Part shown: piece after piece, positions 11,434-24,000 of the stretch
Layout of the letters: the number at the start of each line of letters is the position of its first letter
Position numbering within the stretch: the first letter of the stretch is position 1
NCBI RefSeq assembly: GCF_001559865.1
Contig: NZ_LOHE01000035.1
Span: forward strand, 79,134-103,133
Length of the DNA: 24,000 nt
From: Abyssisolibacter fermentans
Lineage (GTDB): Bacteria > Bacillota > Clostridia > Tissierellales > MCWD3
Direction of reading: 5' to 3'
Notes under the pieces: model-generated
What the model was told of the DNA's origin: nothing
Database searches by the model: none
What the model saw: the letters and a program-made list of their open reading frames with translations, nothing else
Program-made: the position numbers and the translations under genes

Positions 11434-12747
11434 ATGAAGAAAGTAGCAAATATAGTTTTAATGCTAATAATATGTGTAATATTGCTTTTGTTGTATACAA
11501 TAGTGCATGAAGGCGCTCATGCATTTTTTGCGGTTTTATTTGGTGGGCAAATAAGTGAATTTGACATTAATTTTTTAAATGGATATCCACATGTAAGTTA
11601 TTCAGGTATATTTCAGCCATATCAGAAGGCAATTATAAGTATAGCGGGACCAATTATACCGGCTGTTTTATTTTTTATTATCTTATTGTATGTTAATAAA
11701 AGTAATGCTGTAGTAAAAAAAATAAAATTCATAACTGTGATTGGTATATTAGGTACATTATTACCAAATATAATTCTACCTATCATGTATGAAGCTGGTT
11801 TTGATGCCTCCAATGAGGATGTTATAAAATTCATAATAAATTCACAAGTAAACGGTTATTTAACAGCTGTTATTTTTGCCTTGATTTTCTTATTAGGATG
11901 CATTGTCTTTATTAAAAAAATTAATTTAAAAGAAGTCTTAAGTGAAGAAATAAATTTTAATATAGAGAATAAAAAACAGGTTATAATGTTAATTGTTTGT
12001 GGAATATTTACTTTGTTTTTAATTGTTGGAGGTTGCATTAATATACTTACTAATTCGTACGAAGCATCAAGTATGATAAAAAAATATGATGAAAATTTTA
12101 GTATAAAGTTAAACAAAAATCACTACTATAATGAAAATATTTATGAATTTGAAGTAAATGAAGAGGAAATTTATGATTTTTATATTACAGGTAATTGTAA
12201 TGAGAAACTTTCAATAAAACTACAAGGAAATGTTCCAATACAAGGAATTAGAAAAAAAGAGTTACAGTTGTTTAACGGAGAGGGCAAAATCAATAGTACA
12301 TTTACCGGTTGGTTTTTAAATAAAGGAAAATACAAAATTGTTGTGTCATCACATGATAATAATGGGAAAATCGACTTTCATATAAACAAAAAAGAAGCTT
12401 TAGAAAATAAGTTTTCAAATGAAAAAATATTTAATGGGATTATTCCACAATTAGATAATGGATATAAACTTGCTGCTCACGAAAATTTGATTGACTGTAA
12501 AGACAAATGTATTTATGAGTTTTCATTACAGGATACGGAGAATATCAAATTCAGTATTTTTCTTACTACAAAAGATGGAAGTGCAGTAGTTAAGCTATCA
12601 GGGAAAGATTATGAAGATATATTAATTAACGATTACCAAATTTTTACTGATGGTAGAGGAATGAACTTAAAAGAAGGCGATTATAAAATTATGGTAACTT
12701 CAAGTGGTTGTAATGGTGAGATATATTTGTATGTCAAACGTAATTAA
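11434..12747 (+). CDS. polytopic membrane protein with HExxH motif (DUF3267/M50B-like putative zinc peptidase) and duplicated C-terminal beta-rich domain
   Basis: HEGAH directly after TM1 and about 5 predicted TM segments. The C-terminal ~230 aa contains two similar segments (YEFEV..GKYKIVVSSHDNNGKIDFHI and YEFSL..GDYKIMVTSSGCNGEIYLYV). Confidence 0.6.
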   Translation: MKKVANIVLMLIICVILLLLYTIVHEGAHAFFAVLFGGQISEFDINFLNGYPHVSYSGIFQPYQKAIISIAGPIIPAVLFFIILLYVNKSNAVVKKIKFITVIGILGTLLPNIILPIMYEAGFDASNEDVIKFIINSQVNGYLTAVIFALIFLLGCIVFIKKINLKEVLSEEINFNIENKKQVIMLIVCGIFTLFLIVGGCINILTNSYEASSMIKKYDENFSIKLNKNHYYNENIYEFEVNEEEIYDFYITGNCNEKLSIKLQGNVPIQGIRKKELQLFNGEGKINSTFTGWFLNKGKYKIVVSSHDNNGKIDFHINKKEALENKFSNEKIFNGIIPQLDNGYKLAAHENLIDCKDKCIYEFSLQDTENIKFSIFLTTKDGSAVVKLSGKDYEDILINDYQIFTDGRGMNLKEGDYKIMVTSSGCNGEIYLYVKRN

Positions 12748-12748
12748 A

Positions 12749-12847
12749 CCCAAATTATTCATAGAAATCAAATACTTTTTATTAATAACCTCATTCTTCG
12801 AATGAATAAGCGATTTGCATAAAATCCAACAGTGACCATTTTGTGCA
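12749..12847. repeat. decayed copy of the hairpin-module element (left end plus one reverse-oriented module)
   Basis: CCCAAATTATTCATAGAAA (12749-12767) matches the left end of the 19877 element. 12789-12847 is a reverse-oriented module (GAATAAGCGATT core) with a 10-bp hairpin at 12816-12825 / 12838-12847. Confidence 0.6.
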
Positions 12848-18607: not shown

Positions 18608-19876
18608 ATGATTTATAAGATGTATGAGTTGAAAAAATCTGTATCATATCCGTTAATAGTGTTAATCTGTATATTTATAGGTTTTAACTTTTTATTAATA
18701 AGTGAAAAACTCTATGTAAGAGAAGAGCTTGATTCACTAAACAAAATAATAGACGAAGTTGGCTATAAAATAGATGATGAAATGTTAGAAAAACTTGATA
18801 AATATTATAACGATAAACTAAAAAAGTTTAACAATTTAAATCATAAAAAGACCAACAAAATTTATAAAAGTATAGACGATTTTTTTGAAAAAAACAAATA
18901 TCAAATTGAAGAAGTAATGGACGGTTATACGGATGAAGAAAAGGAATTACTTGATGATTTAAGGGTAATAGAGTTTTATTATGATTTGATAAATCCGTTA
19001 AAAGCTCAATATAAAAATATAGACATTATAGAGTTAGGCGAAGAGCAAATAGAAATGAATAAATTATCAGGTCAGGCAGCAGAAACAGTAAGAACTCAAT
19101 ATAGAAAATTTAATGATAGATTTTATGAAATAATTAAGAATAAAGAGCATATAAATTTATTTTTATTTGGCAAGAGTAATAGAATGCATTTATTTCTATT
19201 TAGAGACTTATTAAAAACTATAATGTTTGAAGTGATGATAATTGTAGTATTAATAACTTCTTATTTAATTAATTATGAATTTAATAATAAGACTTTCGTT
19301 TTGATTTACACTACAAGGAAAGGTAGGAATCTTATAAAAGACAAGCTGTTTACAGCTTTGATAATAAGTGTACTAGTTACAACGGTTATAATGGGTATTA
19401 CATTAGGAGTGTATTTTATTGTTTTTGATTATTCAAGGCTCTTAAATGTACCTATAAATAGTGTTTTTAATTGGGAATTGAAGACTCCATTTATGAGCTG
19501 GTTTAAAATGTCCTATGGTAAGTTTTTATTATGTTCTATAGGGCTGGTGTATGCTATAGAATTAGTTTTTGTAGGTATAGCTGTTGTTTTATCAGAGCTA
19601 ATAAGAAATAATTACGTAGTATTTTTTGTATTTTTGATTTTAGCAGGTATATGCTATATGCTTCCTTCGATTATACCAGGAAGTACAAAGCTTATATTTT
19701 TATCAGTATTAACACCTTTTTCACTTGTGTGGGGTTCAGTATTTTGGTTTATGGAAAGTGGAGCACTTACAATAATTAAATACTATGAACTGATTACACT
19801 AGGCGTTTGGGCTTGTATATTGATTATATTAATAAAACTATGTATAAAGAGATTTAAGCATCAAAATATATATTAA
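18608..19876 (+). CDS. ABC-2 type permease with a large N-proximal soluble loop
   Basis: N-terminal TM segment, ~170-aa hydrophilic region, then 5-6 TM segments. YTTRKGRNLIKDKLFTALI is shared with the next permease. Confidence 0.75.
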   Translation: MIYKMYELKKSVSYPLIVLICIFIGFNFLLISEKLYVREELDSLNKIIDEVGYKIDDEMLEKLDKYYNDKLKKFNNLNHKKTNKIYKSIDDFFEKNKYQIEEVMDGYTDEEKELLDDLRVIEFYYDLINPLKAQYKNIDIIELGEEQIEMNKLSGQAAETVRTQYRKFNDRFYEIIKNKEHINLFLFGKSNRMHLFLFRDLLKTIMFEVMIIVVLITSYLINYEFNNKTFVLIYTTRKGRNLIKDKLFTALIISVLVTTVIMGITLGVYFIVFDYSRLLNVPINSVFNWELKTPFMSWFKMSYGKFLLCSIGLVYAIELVFVGIAVVLSELIRNNYVVFFVFLILAGICYMLPSIIPGSTKLIFLSVLTPFSLVWGSVFWFMESGALTIIKYYELITLGVWACILIILIKLCIKRFKHQNIY

Positions 19877-20173
19877 CCCAGATTATTCATAGAAAATTAT
19901 GAGCAGGGAACTAAAATCTGTGATTTTATGTGAGTCGCTTATTCATATGAAGGAACTGAATATGAGATTCATTAATAAACATCCTTCTGATTATAAGATA
20001 TCCATTAAATTCTCGACATACCAACTTGGTATGCCTTCGAATCTAATTTAAAATGTACCTCAGACTCATTACTTCGTCTGAATAAGCGATTCACACTAAA
20101 TTAAAATTTAGGTTCTCTGCTCATAATTCAGAAACTTACAGCATATTATGGGGCGTTATATGAATAATCAGGG
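19877..20173. mobile_element. 297-bp non-coding MITE-like element carrying two inverted hairpin modules
   Basis: TIRs CCCAGATTATTCATA (19877-19891) and TATGAATAATCAGGG (20159-20173) match 14/15 as reverse complements. Flanked by ATTAA on both sides (19872-19876, 20174-20178). Internal modules at 19899-19966 (+) and 20058-20124 (-). Confidence 0.75.
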
Positions 20174-20189
20174 ATTAAGGAGAATGAAT

Positions 20190-21320
20190 ATGAAGGTAGT
20201 ACTAAACGAAATAAAAAAGATATTTAATATAAAAATGATTTCTTTGGTGATAATAGGAAGTTTTATGATGTATTATATATTTATCAGCTTTTATATAGAT
20301 TATTTTCCTAATGGGAGACCAGAAAGTGATTTTTATAATATATCAGTTAAAATGATAGAAGACTATGGTAATAATATGGACAGCAGTGAATTTAATAACT
20401 TCAAGGGTATTCACGCAGAAAAAATTAAAAAAGCAAATAAATATCTTACCTCAAAAGAAGAATTTGTAAAGGTAGGTATAACTACTTATAGTGCATTTGA
20501 AGATATAGATGTATATGATGAGGAGTTATATAACCTAATAAAAAAAGTAATGTTTGAAGAGCAAGTAGATGTGTTTTGGGAGCTTCAAGCAATGGATTGG
20601 CTGGTATATAAATATGAAAACAGTGAAGAGAAGGTATCTAAAAGTAGCCTAAATACAAACTATGAAGGCAGAAATAAACAACTAAAACAAAATAATAATA
20701 ATAATGATATTCTGCCGTATTTTGTTTTTAATAATTTTAATGATTCTGTACAGTATGTTATAGCATTGATATTATTGAGTGTAATATTTATGACAATACC
20801 AATATTTTTAAGAGATAAAAGAAATAAAGTAGAGTACATTCAATATACCTCTAAAACGGGCAGAAATTTATACAAGAAAAAGATAGCTGCAGCTTTGATT
20901 TCAGCATTTATGATTACAGCAACACAAATGGGAGCTTTCTTGATAATCTATTCTACTAATAATGTAAGTATGTATTTTAAGAGCAGTATAAATTCTATTT
21001 TCAATAAATTATTTTGGTTTGATTTGAGTTTTATGCAGTATATATATGTTATTGTTATATGTACATTTATATTAAGCTTTGTAGTTTCATTAATAACAGC
21101 ATTTGTATCAAGCAAAGTATCAAATTATATGGCTGCAATAGGGTTGCAGATTCCAATATATGCAGGGCTTATATTCTTAGTGCAAAGATATATAATTAAT
21201 GATTTGACAGTTATATATAAAGGTAAAGCATTAACATTTATTTGTTACCTAACACTTATTATAATTTCTACAGTGTTGGTTGTATTAAGATGGAAAAAGG
21301 AGAGAGCTATAGAAATATAG
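20190..21320 (+). CDS. ABC-2 type permease, paralog of 18608-19876
   Basis: YTSKTGRNLYKKKIAAALI and the same topology. I prefer ATG 20190 (SD AAGGAG at 20177-20182, 7-nt spacing). The track's extra 14 codons from 20148 read through the element's right TIR. Confidence 0.75.
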   Translation: MKVVLNEIKKIFNIKMISLVIIGSFMMYYIFISFYIDYFPNGRPESDFYNISVKMIEDYGNNMDSSEFNNFKGIHAEKIKKANKYLTSKEEFVKVGITTYSAFEDIDVYDEELYNLIKKVMFEEQVDVFWELQAMDWLVYKYENSEEKVSKSSLNTNYEGRNKQLKQNNNNNDILPYFVFNNFNDSVQYVIALILLSVIFMTIPIFLRDKRNKVEYIQYTSKTGRNLYKKKIAAALISAFMITATQMGAFLIIYSTNNVSMYFKSSINSIFNKLFWFDLSFMQYIYVIVICTFILSFVVSLITAFVSSKVSNYMAAIGLQIPIYAGLIFLVQRYIINDLTVIYKGKALTFICYLTLIIISTVLVVLRWKKERAIEI

Positions 21321-21355
21321 TTAATTTAATTTGTTTATAAGTGTGTATATGATAT

Positions 21356-21399
21356 AATTCCTATTATTAGAGTTAATACTCTTTTAATAGGAATTTTTT
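21356..21399 (+). terminator. rho-independent terminator
   Basis: AATTCCTATTA..AGAGT-TAAT-ACTCT..TAATAGGAATT with a symmetric TT/TT internal loop, followed by TTTTTT. Confidence 0.8.
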
Positions 21400-21623
21400 A
21401 AGCATAGGCTAAATTCATTTGTTGTTAATTGCTTACTTCTTGAAACAAATTTGTGTCTCCGCTAGTGACACAAATTTTAGATTAATAAAGAGAATTTAGT
21501 TAGAAGGTAGAAGACCAATTAGATAAGAATAGTTATTTTGTGTTATTTTTTGATAAAAACGTATGATAATTATGAAAACATTATAAATTGGTTAGAATTA
21601 AAAAAACAATAACGAGGATTTAT

Positions 21624-22580
21624 ATGAATAGAGAAGAATTGATAAATTATATAGATATGCAGTTTAGATATAATGAAAAGGTAAACTTATTTTATAAAAG
21701 AAATTTAGAAGGTACTAAAAGTAACATAAGACCGTCTGAATATTTTTTATTTGGATGTGGAAAATTCAAGAATGAGATTAGAGAAAGTTTAAAGAGTGAA
21801 TATGATAATGATAAGTATGATTATCTATCTGATTATTTCATGCAGAAAGCTATAAAAATGTTTATATTTAATAATCAATATTTATATTTTACAAAGAGCA
21901 GTCAAAAAATATTGAAAGATATTTATATAAGATACATTGAGAATATATATAAACTACTAAGTAGGGAAGAAATAAATACTAAAGATATTGAAAAGATATT
22001 ATATATTCATTCTTGTAATCTTTGTGAGTTTTTGATAGAGACTAATGGAGACTATATTTCTAAAAATCAAAGTAATATGTTTATAGAAAAAATAATATGT
22101 GAAGAATATTCTCCTGAATTTCAGCTGAAAATACTAGCTTTAAATATATCTGATATAGTAGAGCCTGTTTTGGACTTAGGCTGTGGAGAAAATGCTAATT
22201 TAGTTAAATATTTGAGAGATCATGGAATAAAAGCATATGGATTAGATAGATGTATAGATAAAAATACTGATTACTTATATTCATTTGATTGGTTTGATTT
22301 TGATTATAGAAAGAATTATTGGGGAACTATCATATCGCATATGGCATTTTCAAATCATGTCTATCATCACATGAATAGATCAGATGGACATATCCAAAAA
22401 TTCAATACGAAAATTAATGAATTATTAAGCTCATTAAAAACAAATGGAAGTTTTATTTATGCACCGGGACTGCTGGGTGTTGAAGCTTATATAAATACTC
22501 TAGGGCAGTACAGCATAAAAAAACATCAAATATCATCAATGGATCAAAGGTTTTATTCAACAAGGATATTGAAGTTTTAG
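21624..22580 (+). CDS. hypothetical protein with a C-terminal class I SAM-methyltransferase-like domain
   Basis: VLDLGCGENANLVKYL (motif I), AYGLDR, WGTIISHMAF, LKTNGSFIY. The N-terminal ~180 aa has no recognisable motif. I prefer ATG 21624 (SD ACGAGGA) over the track start 21588. Confidence 0.55.
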   Translation: MNREELINYIDMQFRYNEKVNLFYKRNLEGTKSNIRPSEYFLFGCGKFKNEIRESLKSEYDNDKYDYLSDYFMQKAIKMFIFNNQYLYFTKSSQKILKDIYIRYIENIYKLLSREEINTKDIEKILYIHSCNLCEFLIETNGDYISKNQSNMFIEKIICEEYSPEFQLKILALNISDIVEPVLDLGCGENANLVKYLRDHGIKAYGLDRCIDKNTDYLYSFDWFDFDYRKNYWGTIISHMAFSNHVYHHMNRSDGHIQKFNTKINELLSSLKTNGSFIYAPGLLGVEAYINTLGQYSIKKHQISSMDQRFYSTRILKF

Positions 22581-22591
22581 TTAAATTAGGG

Positions 22592-23260
22592 GTGAGTGAA
22601 GTGAACAAAGAAAACAATGCTTTTTGTTCCTTTAGTGGGGGTAAGGATTCTTGTCTTGCACTACATAGAGCATTAAAAGAAGGAATTAAAGTGAAATATT
22701 TATTTACAATGTTTAAAGAAGATGGACAAAGATCTAGAGGACATGGTTTAAAGCCTGAAATTATAAAAAAACAGGCTGAGCTTCTTGATATGGACTTAAT
22801 TTATGGAGAGGCTACATGGGAAGACTATGAAAATGTTTTTAAAGAAAAGATGTGTCTATTAGAAAAAGAAGGAGCTAAAATAGGTGTATTTGGAGATATA
22901 GATATAGATGACCATAGAGAGTGGGTTGTAAAGGCATGCGATCATACTGAAATAGAAGTATATCATCCTATTTGGCAGGAGAGTAGAAGAAAGTTAATTG
23001 AAGAATTTGTTGATTTAGGCTTCAAAGCTATTATAGTGACATTGAATGGTGATGTTTTGTCAAAAGATTATTTAGGCAGAGTTTTTGATAAAACATTAAT
23101 TAAAGAATTTGAACAACTTGGTATTGATGCATGTGGAGAAAATGGCGAATTTCATACAATAGTTATTGACGGACCTATCTTTAAAGAACCACTAAAATTT
23201 GCACGAAAGGATGTCATTAAAATTCAAAACTATTATATGCTTGATTTGGATTTAAATTAG
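22592..23260 (+). CDS. PP-loop ATP pyrophosphatase of the Dph6/MJ0570 (diphthine-ammonia ligase-like) family
   Basis: SFSGGKDS PP-loop, VFGDIDIDDHREW, HPIWQESR, GENGEFHTIVIDGPIF. The start may be GTG 22601. There is an 11-nt gap to the upstream gene. Confidence 0.8.
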   Translation: MSEVNKENNAFCSFSGGKDSCLALHRALKEGIKVKYLFTMFKEDGQRSRGHGLKPEIIKKQAELLDMDLIYGEATWEDYENVFKEKMCLLEKEGAKIGVFGDIDIDDHREWVVKACDHTEIEVYHPIWQESRRKLIEEFVDLGFKAIIVTLNGDVLSKDYLGRVFDKTLIKEFEQLGIDACGENGEFHTIVIDGPIFKEPLKFARKDVIKIQNYYMLDLDLN

Positions 23261-23944
23261 GTTGTTTCAAAATGGCAAATTTCTGCGTTATTGAAATATT
23301 TCACGACTAATCATGAGCAGCGAACAGAAATCTACGATTTCTAGTAAGTCGCTTACTCCTAGGAACGAAGTGAGTAGTGAGCTACATCTAGTACGCTCAT
23401 ATCTGTAAGCAGAGAACCCAAAATTCATTTTTGGAGTGAATCGCTTACTCAGAGGAAGAATGAGTCTGAGTTTCAAATAATATATAGCCTTGAACTTTAC
23501 TTATTTTGAAACAACCCAAAGAGATGTCTCAAAATAGCAAACTTCTGCGATGAGCAGCGAACAGAAATCTACGATTTCTAGTAAGTCGCTTACTCCTAGG
23601 AACGAAGTGAGTAGTGAGCTACATCTAGTACGCTCATATCTGTAAGCAGAGAACCCAAAATTCATTTTTGGCGTGAATCGCTTACTCAGAGGAAGAATGA
23701 GTCTGAGTTTCAATTAGTATATAGCCTTGAACTTTACTTATTTTGAAACAACCCAAAGAGATGTCTCAAAATGGCAAATTTCTGCGATGAGCAGCGAACA
23801 GAAATCTTTGATTTCTAGTAAGTCGCTTACTCCTAGGAACGTAGTGAGTAGTGAGCTACATCTAGTACGCTCATATCTGTAAGCAGAGAACCCAAAATTC
23901 ATTTTTGGAGTGAATCGCTTACTCAGAGGAAGAATGAGTCTGAG
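23261..23944. repeat. three head-to-tail copies (237-bp period) of a 230-bp TIR-bounded unit, each with two direct hairpin modules
   Basis: ATGAGCAGCGAAC at 23313, 23550 and 23787. GAGTCTGAG ends at 23470, 23707 and 23944. Left ends at 23261, 23523 and 23760; right ends at 23503-23515 and 23740-23752. 7-nt CCAAAGA linkers. Confidence 0.9.
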
Positions 23945-24000
23945 TAAGTGACTCTAACAGTAAGTTTTGTTTATTGACTATATATATTTACTACCTTCCC

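Follow-up and report, generated by a model that had tools for sequence, protein, structure and literature searches.

The REP/BIME sequences of Enterobacteria are thought to stabilise the upstream mRNA. Individual REPs are simple palindromes that carry a GTAG/CGTC tag, are species-specific and are linked to RAYT. The BOX elements of Streptococcus pneumoniae (boxA-boxB(n)-boxC) are modular intergenic repeats, and bacterial MITEs, such as Correia, ERIC, RUP and bcr1, are small, non-coding sequences with inverted ends in AT-rich intergenic regions. Here we describe a tandem array in Abyssisolibacter fermentans that shares traits with each of these systems, together with the module of ~77 nt that lies at its core and is found in two distant phyla.

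Layout and origin of the array

The stretch of DNA analysed here (the window) comprises 24,000 nucleotides of the genome of A. fermentans, a bacterium placed in Clostridiaceae and distinct from Clostridium. The array abuts a gene for a Dph6-type PP-loop ATP pyrophosphatase (Table 1); the PP-loop ATPase family had been proposed for this gene from the sequence alone and is borne out by the Pfam match, and the product is 100% identical to the NCBI 'diphthine--ammonia ligase' of A. fermentans.

Table 1. Coordinates of the array, its modules and the related elements in the window
Feature	Position	Strand	Evidence or remark
Decayed 19877-type remnant with end CCCAAATTATTCATAGAA and a partial module	12749-12830	-	R1 12.6 bits, E=0.38
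MITE-like sister element, 297 bp, two module types inverted	19877-20173		modules 19898-19975 (+) and 20125-20050 (-); 73.6 and 74.6 bits
Dph6-type PP-loop ATP pyrophosphatase gene	22592-23260	+	Pfam PF01902, E=2.4e-46; TAG stop 23258-23260 abuts array
Left inverted end of unit 1, GGTTGTTTCAAAAT	23260-23273	+	sequence and inverted-end search
25-nt insertion, unit 1 only	23288-23312	+	spacing 262 vs 237; no significant similarity to 19877 element
Module M1, copy 1 (AUGAGCAG... type)	23312-23390	+	cmsearch R1 56.4 bits, E=1e-11
Module M2, copy 1 (UAAGCAG... type)	23404-23479	+	cmsearch R1 77.2 bits, E=9e-17
Right inverted end of unit 1	23503-23516	-	perfect reverse complement of 23260-23273
Linker CAAAGA, units 1/2	23517-23522	+	recurs identically at 23754-23759 (units 2/3)
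Variant left end of unit 2, GATGTCTCAAAAT	23523-23535	+	sequence
Module M1, copy 2	23549-23627	+	cmsearch R1 56.0 bits
Module M2, copy 2	23641-23716	+	cmsearch R1 76.7 bits
Right inverted end of unit 2	23740-23753	-	inverted-end search
Variant left end of unit 3	23760-23772	+	sequence
Module M1, copy 3	23786-23864	+	cmsearch R1 57.0 bits
Module M2, copy 3, without UUUC tail and without right inverted end	23878-23953	+	cmsearch R1 66.3 bits; TRF end 23945

The original prediction described three copies in an exact 237-bp tandem period, joined by a constant linker, with an insertion of 25 bp in the first unit and no right end on the third, and this layout is confirmed in all these respects. TRF reports a period of 237 with 2.7 copies, 97% matches, 0% indels and a score of 1210 at 23313-23945, and a repeat search finds three in-register copies of a 159-nt segment, at 23313, 23550 and 23787, the second and third being 99% and 98% identical to the first. 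The left ends of the units, at 23263, 23525 and 23762 by the same search, are spaced by 262 and then by 237 nt, which places the 25-nt insertion in unit 1. The further suggestion that this insertion resembles the left end of the sister element at 19877 is not upheld: the local alignment score of 10 lies below the mean of the shuffles, 10.5, and is equalled or exceeded by 68% of them. Pairwise identities between the units are 232/237, 156/159 and 155/159 (97.5-98.1%), and each unit carries private SNPs, which implies that no fewer than three different copies exist. The repeat breaks off in unit 3 at 23945, and the sequence from there to 24000 is unrelated, so that the array ends inside the window.

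Inverted ends are present, as predicted, with two corrections. They are 14 rather than 13 nt long, and the right ends of units 1 and 2 are both perfect (14/14) reverse complements of the left end of unit 1; units 2 and 3 carry the variant left end. The array does abut the TAG codon, but the inverted end itself begins on the last G of this codon and not after it. The 14-nt end has five matches at up to two mismatches, versus 0.6 expected. Where units 1 and 2 adjoin, the right end of the former and the left end of the latter can form a predicted imperfect hairpin of 13 bp. Within each unit, there are two direct copies, M1 and M2, of a module of ~77 nt, giving six modules on the strand of the Dph6-type gene, the first of which begins 52 nt past the TAG. 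The basic repeating entity is this module and not the 237-bp unit, a level of organisation that was missed originally. A CRISPR or other spacer array is excluded because whole units are 97-98% identical, without variable spacers. ARAGORN detects no tRNA or tmRNA gene (0) in 19000-24000.

The exact period, the high identity of the copies and the identical CAAAGA junctions are those of tandem duplication. We put at roughly 60% the probability that the array results from local amplification in tandem, on the 3' side of the Dph6-type gene, of a composite repeat of 237 bp with two structured modules per unit. Between two adjacent copies, either unequal homologous recombination or slippage would have produced the three units, and such duplication would explain both the exact register and the identical linker. 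Unit 2 combines the left end of unit 3 with the right end of unit 1, a combination that a single unequal crossover would yield; the pattern of SNPs between the units is star-like, and the SNPs are too few to locate the crossover.

The original prediction had weighed a tandemly amplified structured-RNA locus against self-targeted serial insertion. Under the latter, a 230-bp MITE would have inserted three times, head to tail, at the same site beside its own end. The perfect inverted ends point to a history of DNA transposition for the array unit and, together with the related element 3.4 kb upstream, with its 18-nt ends (89% complementary) and ATTAA on both flanks, and with the stop codons that all three elements in the window abut, would fit such insertion. 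However, none of units 1-3 is flanked by direct repeats that could represent a target-site duplication, units 2 and 3 have in common the left end GATGTCTC, unlike unit 1, and unit 3 has no right end; the identical junctions, linker included, require no further assumptions under duplication. Outside the array, neither the unit nor its left end recurs in the 24-kb window, in viral contigs or in metagenome contigs, and the unit has no copy in plasmids or phages. We therefore consider serial insertion unlikely and retain the amplified locus, with two strongly covarying RNA modules per unit and junctions as duplication yields them. The likeness to MITEs holds for the 14-nt ends and for the sister element; the sequences searched contain no dispersed copy of the array unit. 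Mis-resolution of the tandem copy number during assembly is conceivable in a draft genome (contig of about 130 kb) with a 711-bp array that exceeds short-read length; the SNPs private to each unit, the insertion unique to unit 1 and the unique right flank of unit 3 render such an artefact very improbable.

The sister element has imperfect inverted ends of 18 nt, CCCAGATTATTCATAGAA, with one module in each arm, and the ATTAA direct repeats on its two sides have the form of a target-site duplication. Its first base directly follows the TAA of ORF 18608-19876, and on the right it extends over the first ATG of the listed ORF 20148-21320; immediately past the element there is a better ribosome-binding site, AAGGAG, so that the real start of this ORF is probably downstream of the element. 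At 21356-21395, the same ORF is succeeded by inverted repeats of 18 nt, AATTCCTATTATTAGAGT / ACTCTTTTAATAGGAATT, and a TTTTTT run; together, these look like the terminator of ORF 20148-21320, with an AT-rich stem that the scan rules missed. The decayed remnant starts 2 nt after the stop codon of ORF 11434-12747; each of the three elements in the window, then, abuts a stop codon. Another 19877-type copy, ~90% identical by eye, is present on the predicted viral contig IMGVR_UViG_2684622596_000001 (L001 11406-11586; the locus ends inside the copy).

Beyond the window, many of the Clostridium copies of the module occupy the centre of a MITE of ~250 bp, here denoted family A, which has long inverted ends (AGGCACATGAAAATAAATAACAAGTCCA...) and TA/TTA flanks, and contains a single module. 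Carriers of family A include the loci L039, L041, L048, L050, L054, L056, L075, L081, L083, L084, L089, L106 and others, and two of its copies contain a further insertion of ~45 bp. The module is thus found in no fewer than three types of repeat that differ in their inverted ends, namely, family A, the 19877 type and the array unit, which identifies it as a passenger common to unrelated repeats. Clustering of 1194 ORFs from the 8-kb neighbourhoods reveals no enriched transposase or RAYT family.

Two relatives, with protein identities of 76% and 73%, have no modules at their orthologous Dph6-type loci; the module cluster, therefore, is specific to the A. fermentans lineage. The scans of 22400-24000 find no terminator and no excess of promoters, which makes read-through from the Dph6-type gene the simplest expectation. 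The array itself is not an intrinsic terminator: there is no GC-rich hairpin with a U tract in 22400-24000, and the modules that reside elsewhere precede a separate terminator.

Fold and covariation of the module

We obtained the fold with RNAalifold from 48 diverse copies and built the covariance model, R1, on that alignment. The module opens with P1 (URAGC/GCUUA), an internal loop and the variable hairpin A, and continues directly with the variable hairpin B and UUUC(A/C)U. The internal loop consists of AGN opposite RUC, then tandem G.A pairs, and its nucleotides are near-invariant. The segments of ~70 nt that recur within the units and in the sister element share AGCAG-N-GAAC, a hairpin, N-GUGAAUCGCUUAYUC and a second hairpin; the sequences of the hairpins vary, with complementarity kept. 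In the window, R1 matches eight full modules (six in the array and two in the sister element) along with one decayed remnant near 12800.

In an alignment of 130 sequences, 95.6% of the cells are paired, compared to 81% in shuffled alignments and 22-40% with slid partners, and compensatory double changes are found in 16 of the 20 pairs. The covariation score is 0.352 versus 0.115, and none of 500 shuffles reached the observed score. By the test of compensatory changes, which exceed the controls, the module is a structured RNA motif.

In a variant subclass, GAAC/GUGA is replaced by UAUC/GAUA, CAUC/GAUG or UACC/GGUA (L069:929-1005, L099:6254-6326, L006:4977-5185, L014:7739-7825, L028:222-299, L091:1357-1423 and L033:6233-6294). 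These Watson-Crick variants indicate that positions 15.54 and 16.53 are paired, with tandem sheared G.A pairs there in the main class. In most cases, a standard module directly follows the variant, the two forming composite tandem units, as in C. simiarum (L077), where the period is 121 nt.

The near-invariant loop invites comparison with two known RNA architectures. As in the standard kink-turn (PMC5061560), the 5' strand of the module has a helix, three nucleotides (AGN), G-A and another helix, and the opposite strand supplies the G-A for tandem sheared pairs. In contrast to the standard kink-turn, which has none, the second strand of the module contains three extra nucleotides (RUC), yielding a 3x3 loop plus tandem G.A; for this reason, the module is not a canonical kink-turn.

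The other candidate is the double T-loop, with its published signature AGNNA...UGNNA (PMC3664808), which would imply that the module docks on the tRNA elbow. The six nucleotides of the signature are common to the module (A in 128, G in 125 and the final A in 129 of 130 sequences for the first part; U in 99, G in 128 and A in 126 for the second), and both strands flank a hairpin. The cross-strand covariation of the module, however, is incompatible with T-loops: the positions 15.54, 16.53 and 17-52 become Watson-Crick pairs in the variants (UAUC/GAUA, CAUC/GAUG, UACC/GGUA), and such pairing across the loop contradicts T-loop geometry. Moreover, 29/130 sequences have A or C at position 1 of the second loop, and the would-be platform residues are not purine-purine. 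A double T-loop thus appears highly unlikely. The near-invariance of the loop across phyla, as read from the alignment, suggests a specific partner, either a protein or the ribosome.

Three small ORFs traverse the array on the plus strand (23313-23408, 23550-23645 and 23727-23882), running from an AUG in the AUGAGCAG of M1 to the UAA that forms part of P1 of M2. In units 1 and 2, this ORF has 31 codons (MSSEQKSTISSKSLTPRNEVSSELHLVRSYL); in unit 3, where the frame is open upstream to a TTG at 23727, it has 51. We judge these ORFs non-coding because no Shine-Dalgarno sequence precedes the AUG in the array and the frame is not kept elsewhere; they are probably not translated.

Genomic positions and possible roles

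A pattern scan with one genome per species returned at least 120 loci, and modules were counted in 121 fetched loci. Among the matches listed (at least 120 loci), R1 recognises 130 + 28, that is, ~158 modules in the fetched loci. The hosts, among the matches listed, are mostly species of Clostridium, along with Haloimpatiens, Hathewaya, Tissierellia and several genera of Flavobacteriaceae. Also among the matches listed, an intergenic placement holds for 129 of 131 modules, the gene upstream shares the orientation of the module in 77 cases versus 36, and TAA or TGA directly precedes GCAG in 138 of 139, although this triplet was absent from the search pattern.

Among the matches listed, there are 27-28 cases in which the URA of P1 is the exact end of a long ORF; none of the eight modules of the window provides the stop codon of a real gene in this manner. 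The genes that end on the module, read from their translations, presumably encode flagellin in Haloimpatiens, two Clostridium species, Hathewaya and two uncultured genomes (Tissierellia, Firmicutes), and what we take to be DnaK in six or seven flavobacterial genera. From their translations, the other genes would appear to encode HtpG, a cyclophilin-FKBP isomerase (PPIase), a B12-dependent ribonucleotide reductase, an IcmF-like mutase, Asp/Asn-tRNA synthetase, a glycyl-radical-enzyme activase, an aquaporin and a HIT protein. We take the C-termini of these proteins to be normal for their families, which implies that the URA of the module is the native stop codon. The module, or a run of 2-4 tandem modules, is followed on the 3' side either by a distinct canonical terminator or by the next gene's ribosome-binding site. 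At the orthologous DnaK and flagellin sites of different genera, the sequences of hairpin A differ and are still complementary, which points to selection that has long maintained the fold at these sites.

Tandem modules after a stop codon are not limited to the array described here and are found also at L003 (at least three), L009, L020, L034, L080, L006, L031 and L077. In Psychroserpens algicola (L003 2739-3000), at least three tandem modules with a period of ~83 nt extend from the stop codon of the gene for a 246-aa membrane protein, so that module arrays are not confined to Clostridia. A locus labelled as a Bifidobacterium breve MAG (L047) has a module of the flavobacterial type after a protein ending in DYNFYTQNM, as in Psychroserpens and Winogradskyella, and is probably a mis-binned contig.

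The intergenic and clustered placement of the modules, their presence in both orientations in the sister element and their multiple copies in many genomes would be compatible with a DNA repeat of the REP/BIME type, a palindromic site for the tyrosine transposase RAYT, gyrase or IHF, in which RNA folding is incidental. This explanation fits poorly with the strand asymmetry of the modules. In the RNA-strand test, G.U (85) exceeds A.C (44), a moderate excess that is uncorrected for phylogeny; the co-orientation with the upstream gene (77 vs 36) and 27 exact coincidences with stop codons point in the same direction. Furthermore, single-copy modules are conserved, with compensatory changes, after dnaK and the flagellin gene in several genera, the GTAG/CGTC tag is lacking, and no transposase family recurs within the 8-kb loci. 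A DNA-level role is, accordingly, improbable in our assessment.

We favour, tentatively and at somewhat less than even odds, a cis-acting element of the mRNA that lies past the stop codon and would serve in stability or insulation. A mechanism in cis is preferred because of the position on stop codons, the placement before a real terminator or between cistrons and the tandem multiplicity. The array would be read through from the Dph6-type gene, and the modules would work in cis as compact RNA folds that start exactly where the cover of the ribosome ends. Such folds would limit the entry of nucleases or uncouple neighbouring cistrons, as proposed for REP/BIME. As a simple barrier, they do not require the specific partner that the conserved loop suggests.

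A more speculative possibility, to which we give lower weight, is that the module is an RNA device coupled to translation termination, through which the 3' region of the mRNA senses translation and controls decay, ribosome release or downstream expression. With the stop codon inside P1, each terminating ribosome would melt this helix, which would refold only when the stop codon is unoccupied. MITE-like repeats would have repeatedly captured and spread such a device, and the six-module array would be one of the products.

Finally, the array might comprise independent small-RNA genes, with a precursor cut at the unit-end hairpins into six or three stable RNAs, for example, of an antitoxin-like or sponge kind. 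The structured units are in tandem, one of them folds with z=-2.3, and the 13-bp hairpin formed by abutting unit ends would be a possible processing site. Nevertheless, there is no excess of promoters, no partner gene is visible in the window, which ends 55 nt past the array, and elsewhere the module sits in the 3' regions of mRNAs and not as a free-standing gene. We find small-RNA genes an unpromising explanation in comparison with a cis-acting element.

Comparison with known systems

The original prediction left room for a catalogued RNA family, and none is found: in Rfam 15, neither the window nor 18 loci have a match at the gathering score, and at E up to 10 there are only chance-level matches. 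Keyword and sequence-string searches of the literature, with incomplete coverage that leaves a prior description possible, retrieved no description of the module. The Clot-1 and Clop-1 repeat families (PMC2267715) are of similar size and have different sequences, and a Flavobacterium transcriptome paper does not mention the module.

The module is, then, a compact fold that is well supported by covariation, is absent from Rfam 15 and is located, in two distant phyla, at the stop codons of genes that are unrelated and often highly expressed, such as those read as flagellin, DnaK and HtpG. We know of no catalogued bacterial RNA motif that starts exactly on a stop codon. This position suggests either a link between translation termination and the fate of the mRNA or an unusually precise insertion preference, and travel as a passenger in several repeat families would be a route for the fast genomic spread of a post-transcriptional element. 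Culturable species of Clostridium or Flavobacterium offer direct tests of both ideas by means of reporters, probing and transcriptomics.

Among the described systems, REP/BIME sequences are likewise short structured repeats that lie just past stop codons or between cistrons, singly or in tandem, with variable copy number. Unlike REPs, the module consists of two hairpins with a near-invariant internal loop, is found in two phyla, includes the stop codon in P1 and has no RAYT nearby. It starts with URAGCAG, and its 8-kb loci lack a recurrent transposase, so it does not belong to the REP/BIME class. With the BOX elements, the module has in common a modular intergenic organisation, with a structured sub-module that varies in tandem number; BOX elements, in contrast, are unrelated in sequence, occur in a single genus and show no link to stop codons.

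The array unit and the sister element are similar to the Correia, ERIC, RUP and bcr1 MITEs in their inverted ends, small size, lack of coding capacity and AT-rich intergenic location, and the sister element also in its flank duplication, ATTAA. In contrast to MITEs, the conserved part here is the internal passenger module of at least three repeat types, whereas the ends are unrelated and not conserved. Taken by itself, the array appears to be a commonplace tandem duplication of an intergenic repeat and adds one more example of a familiar process. The module is of the same general kind as structured intergenic repeats and 3'-UTR motifs, and is set apart by the stop codon within P1 and by its conservation across phyla.
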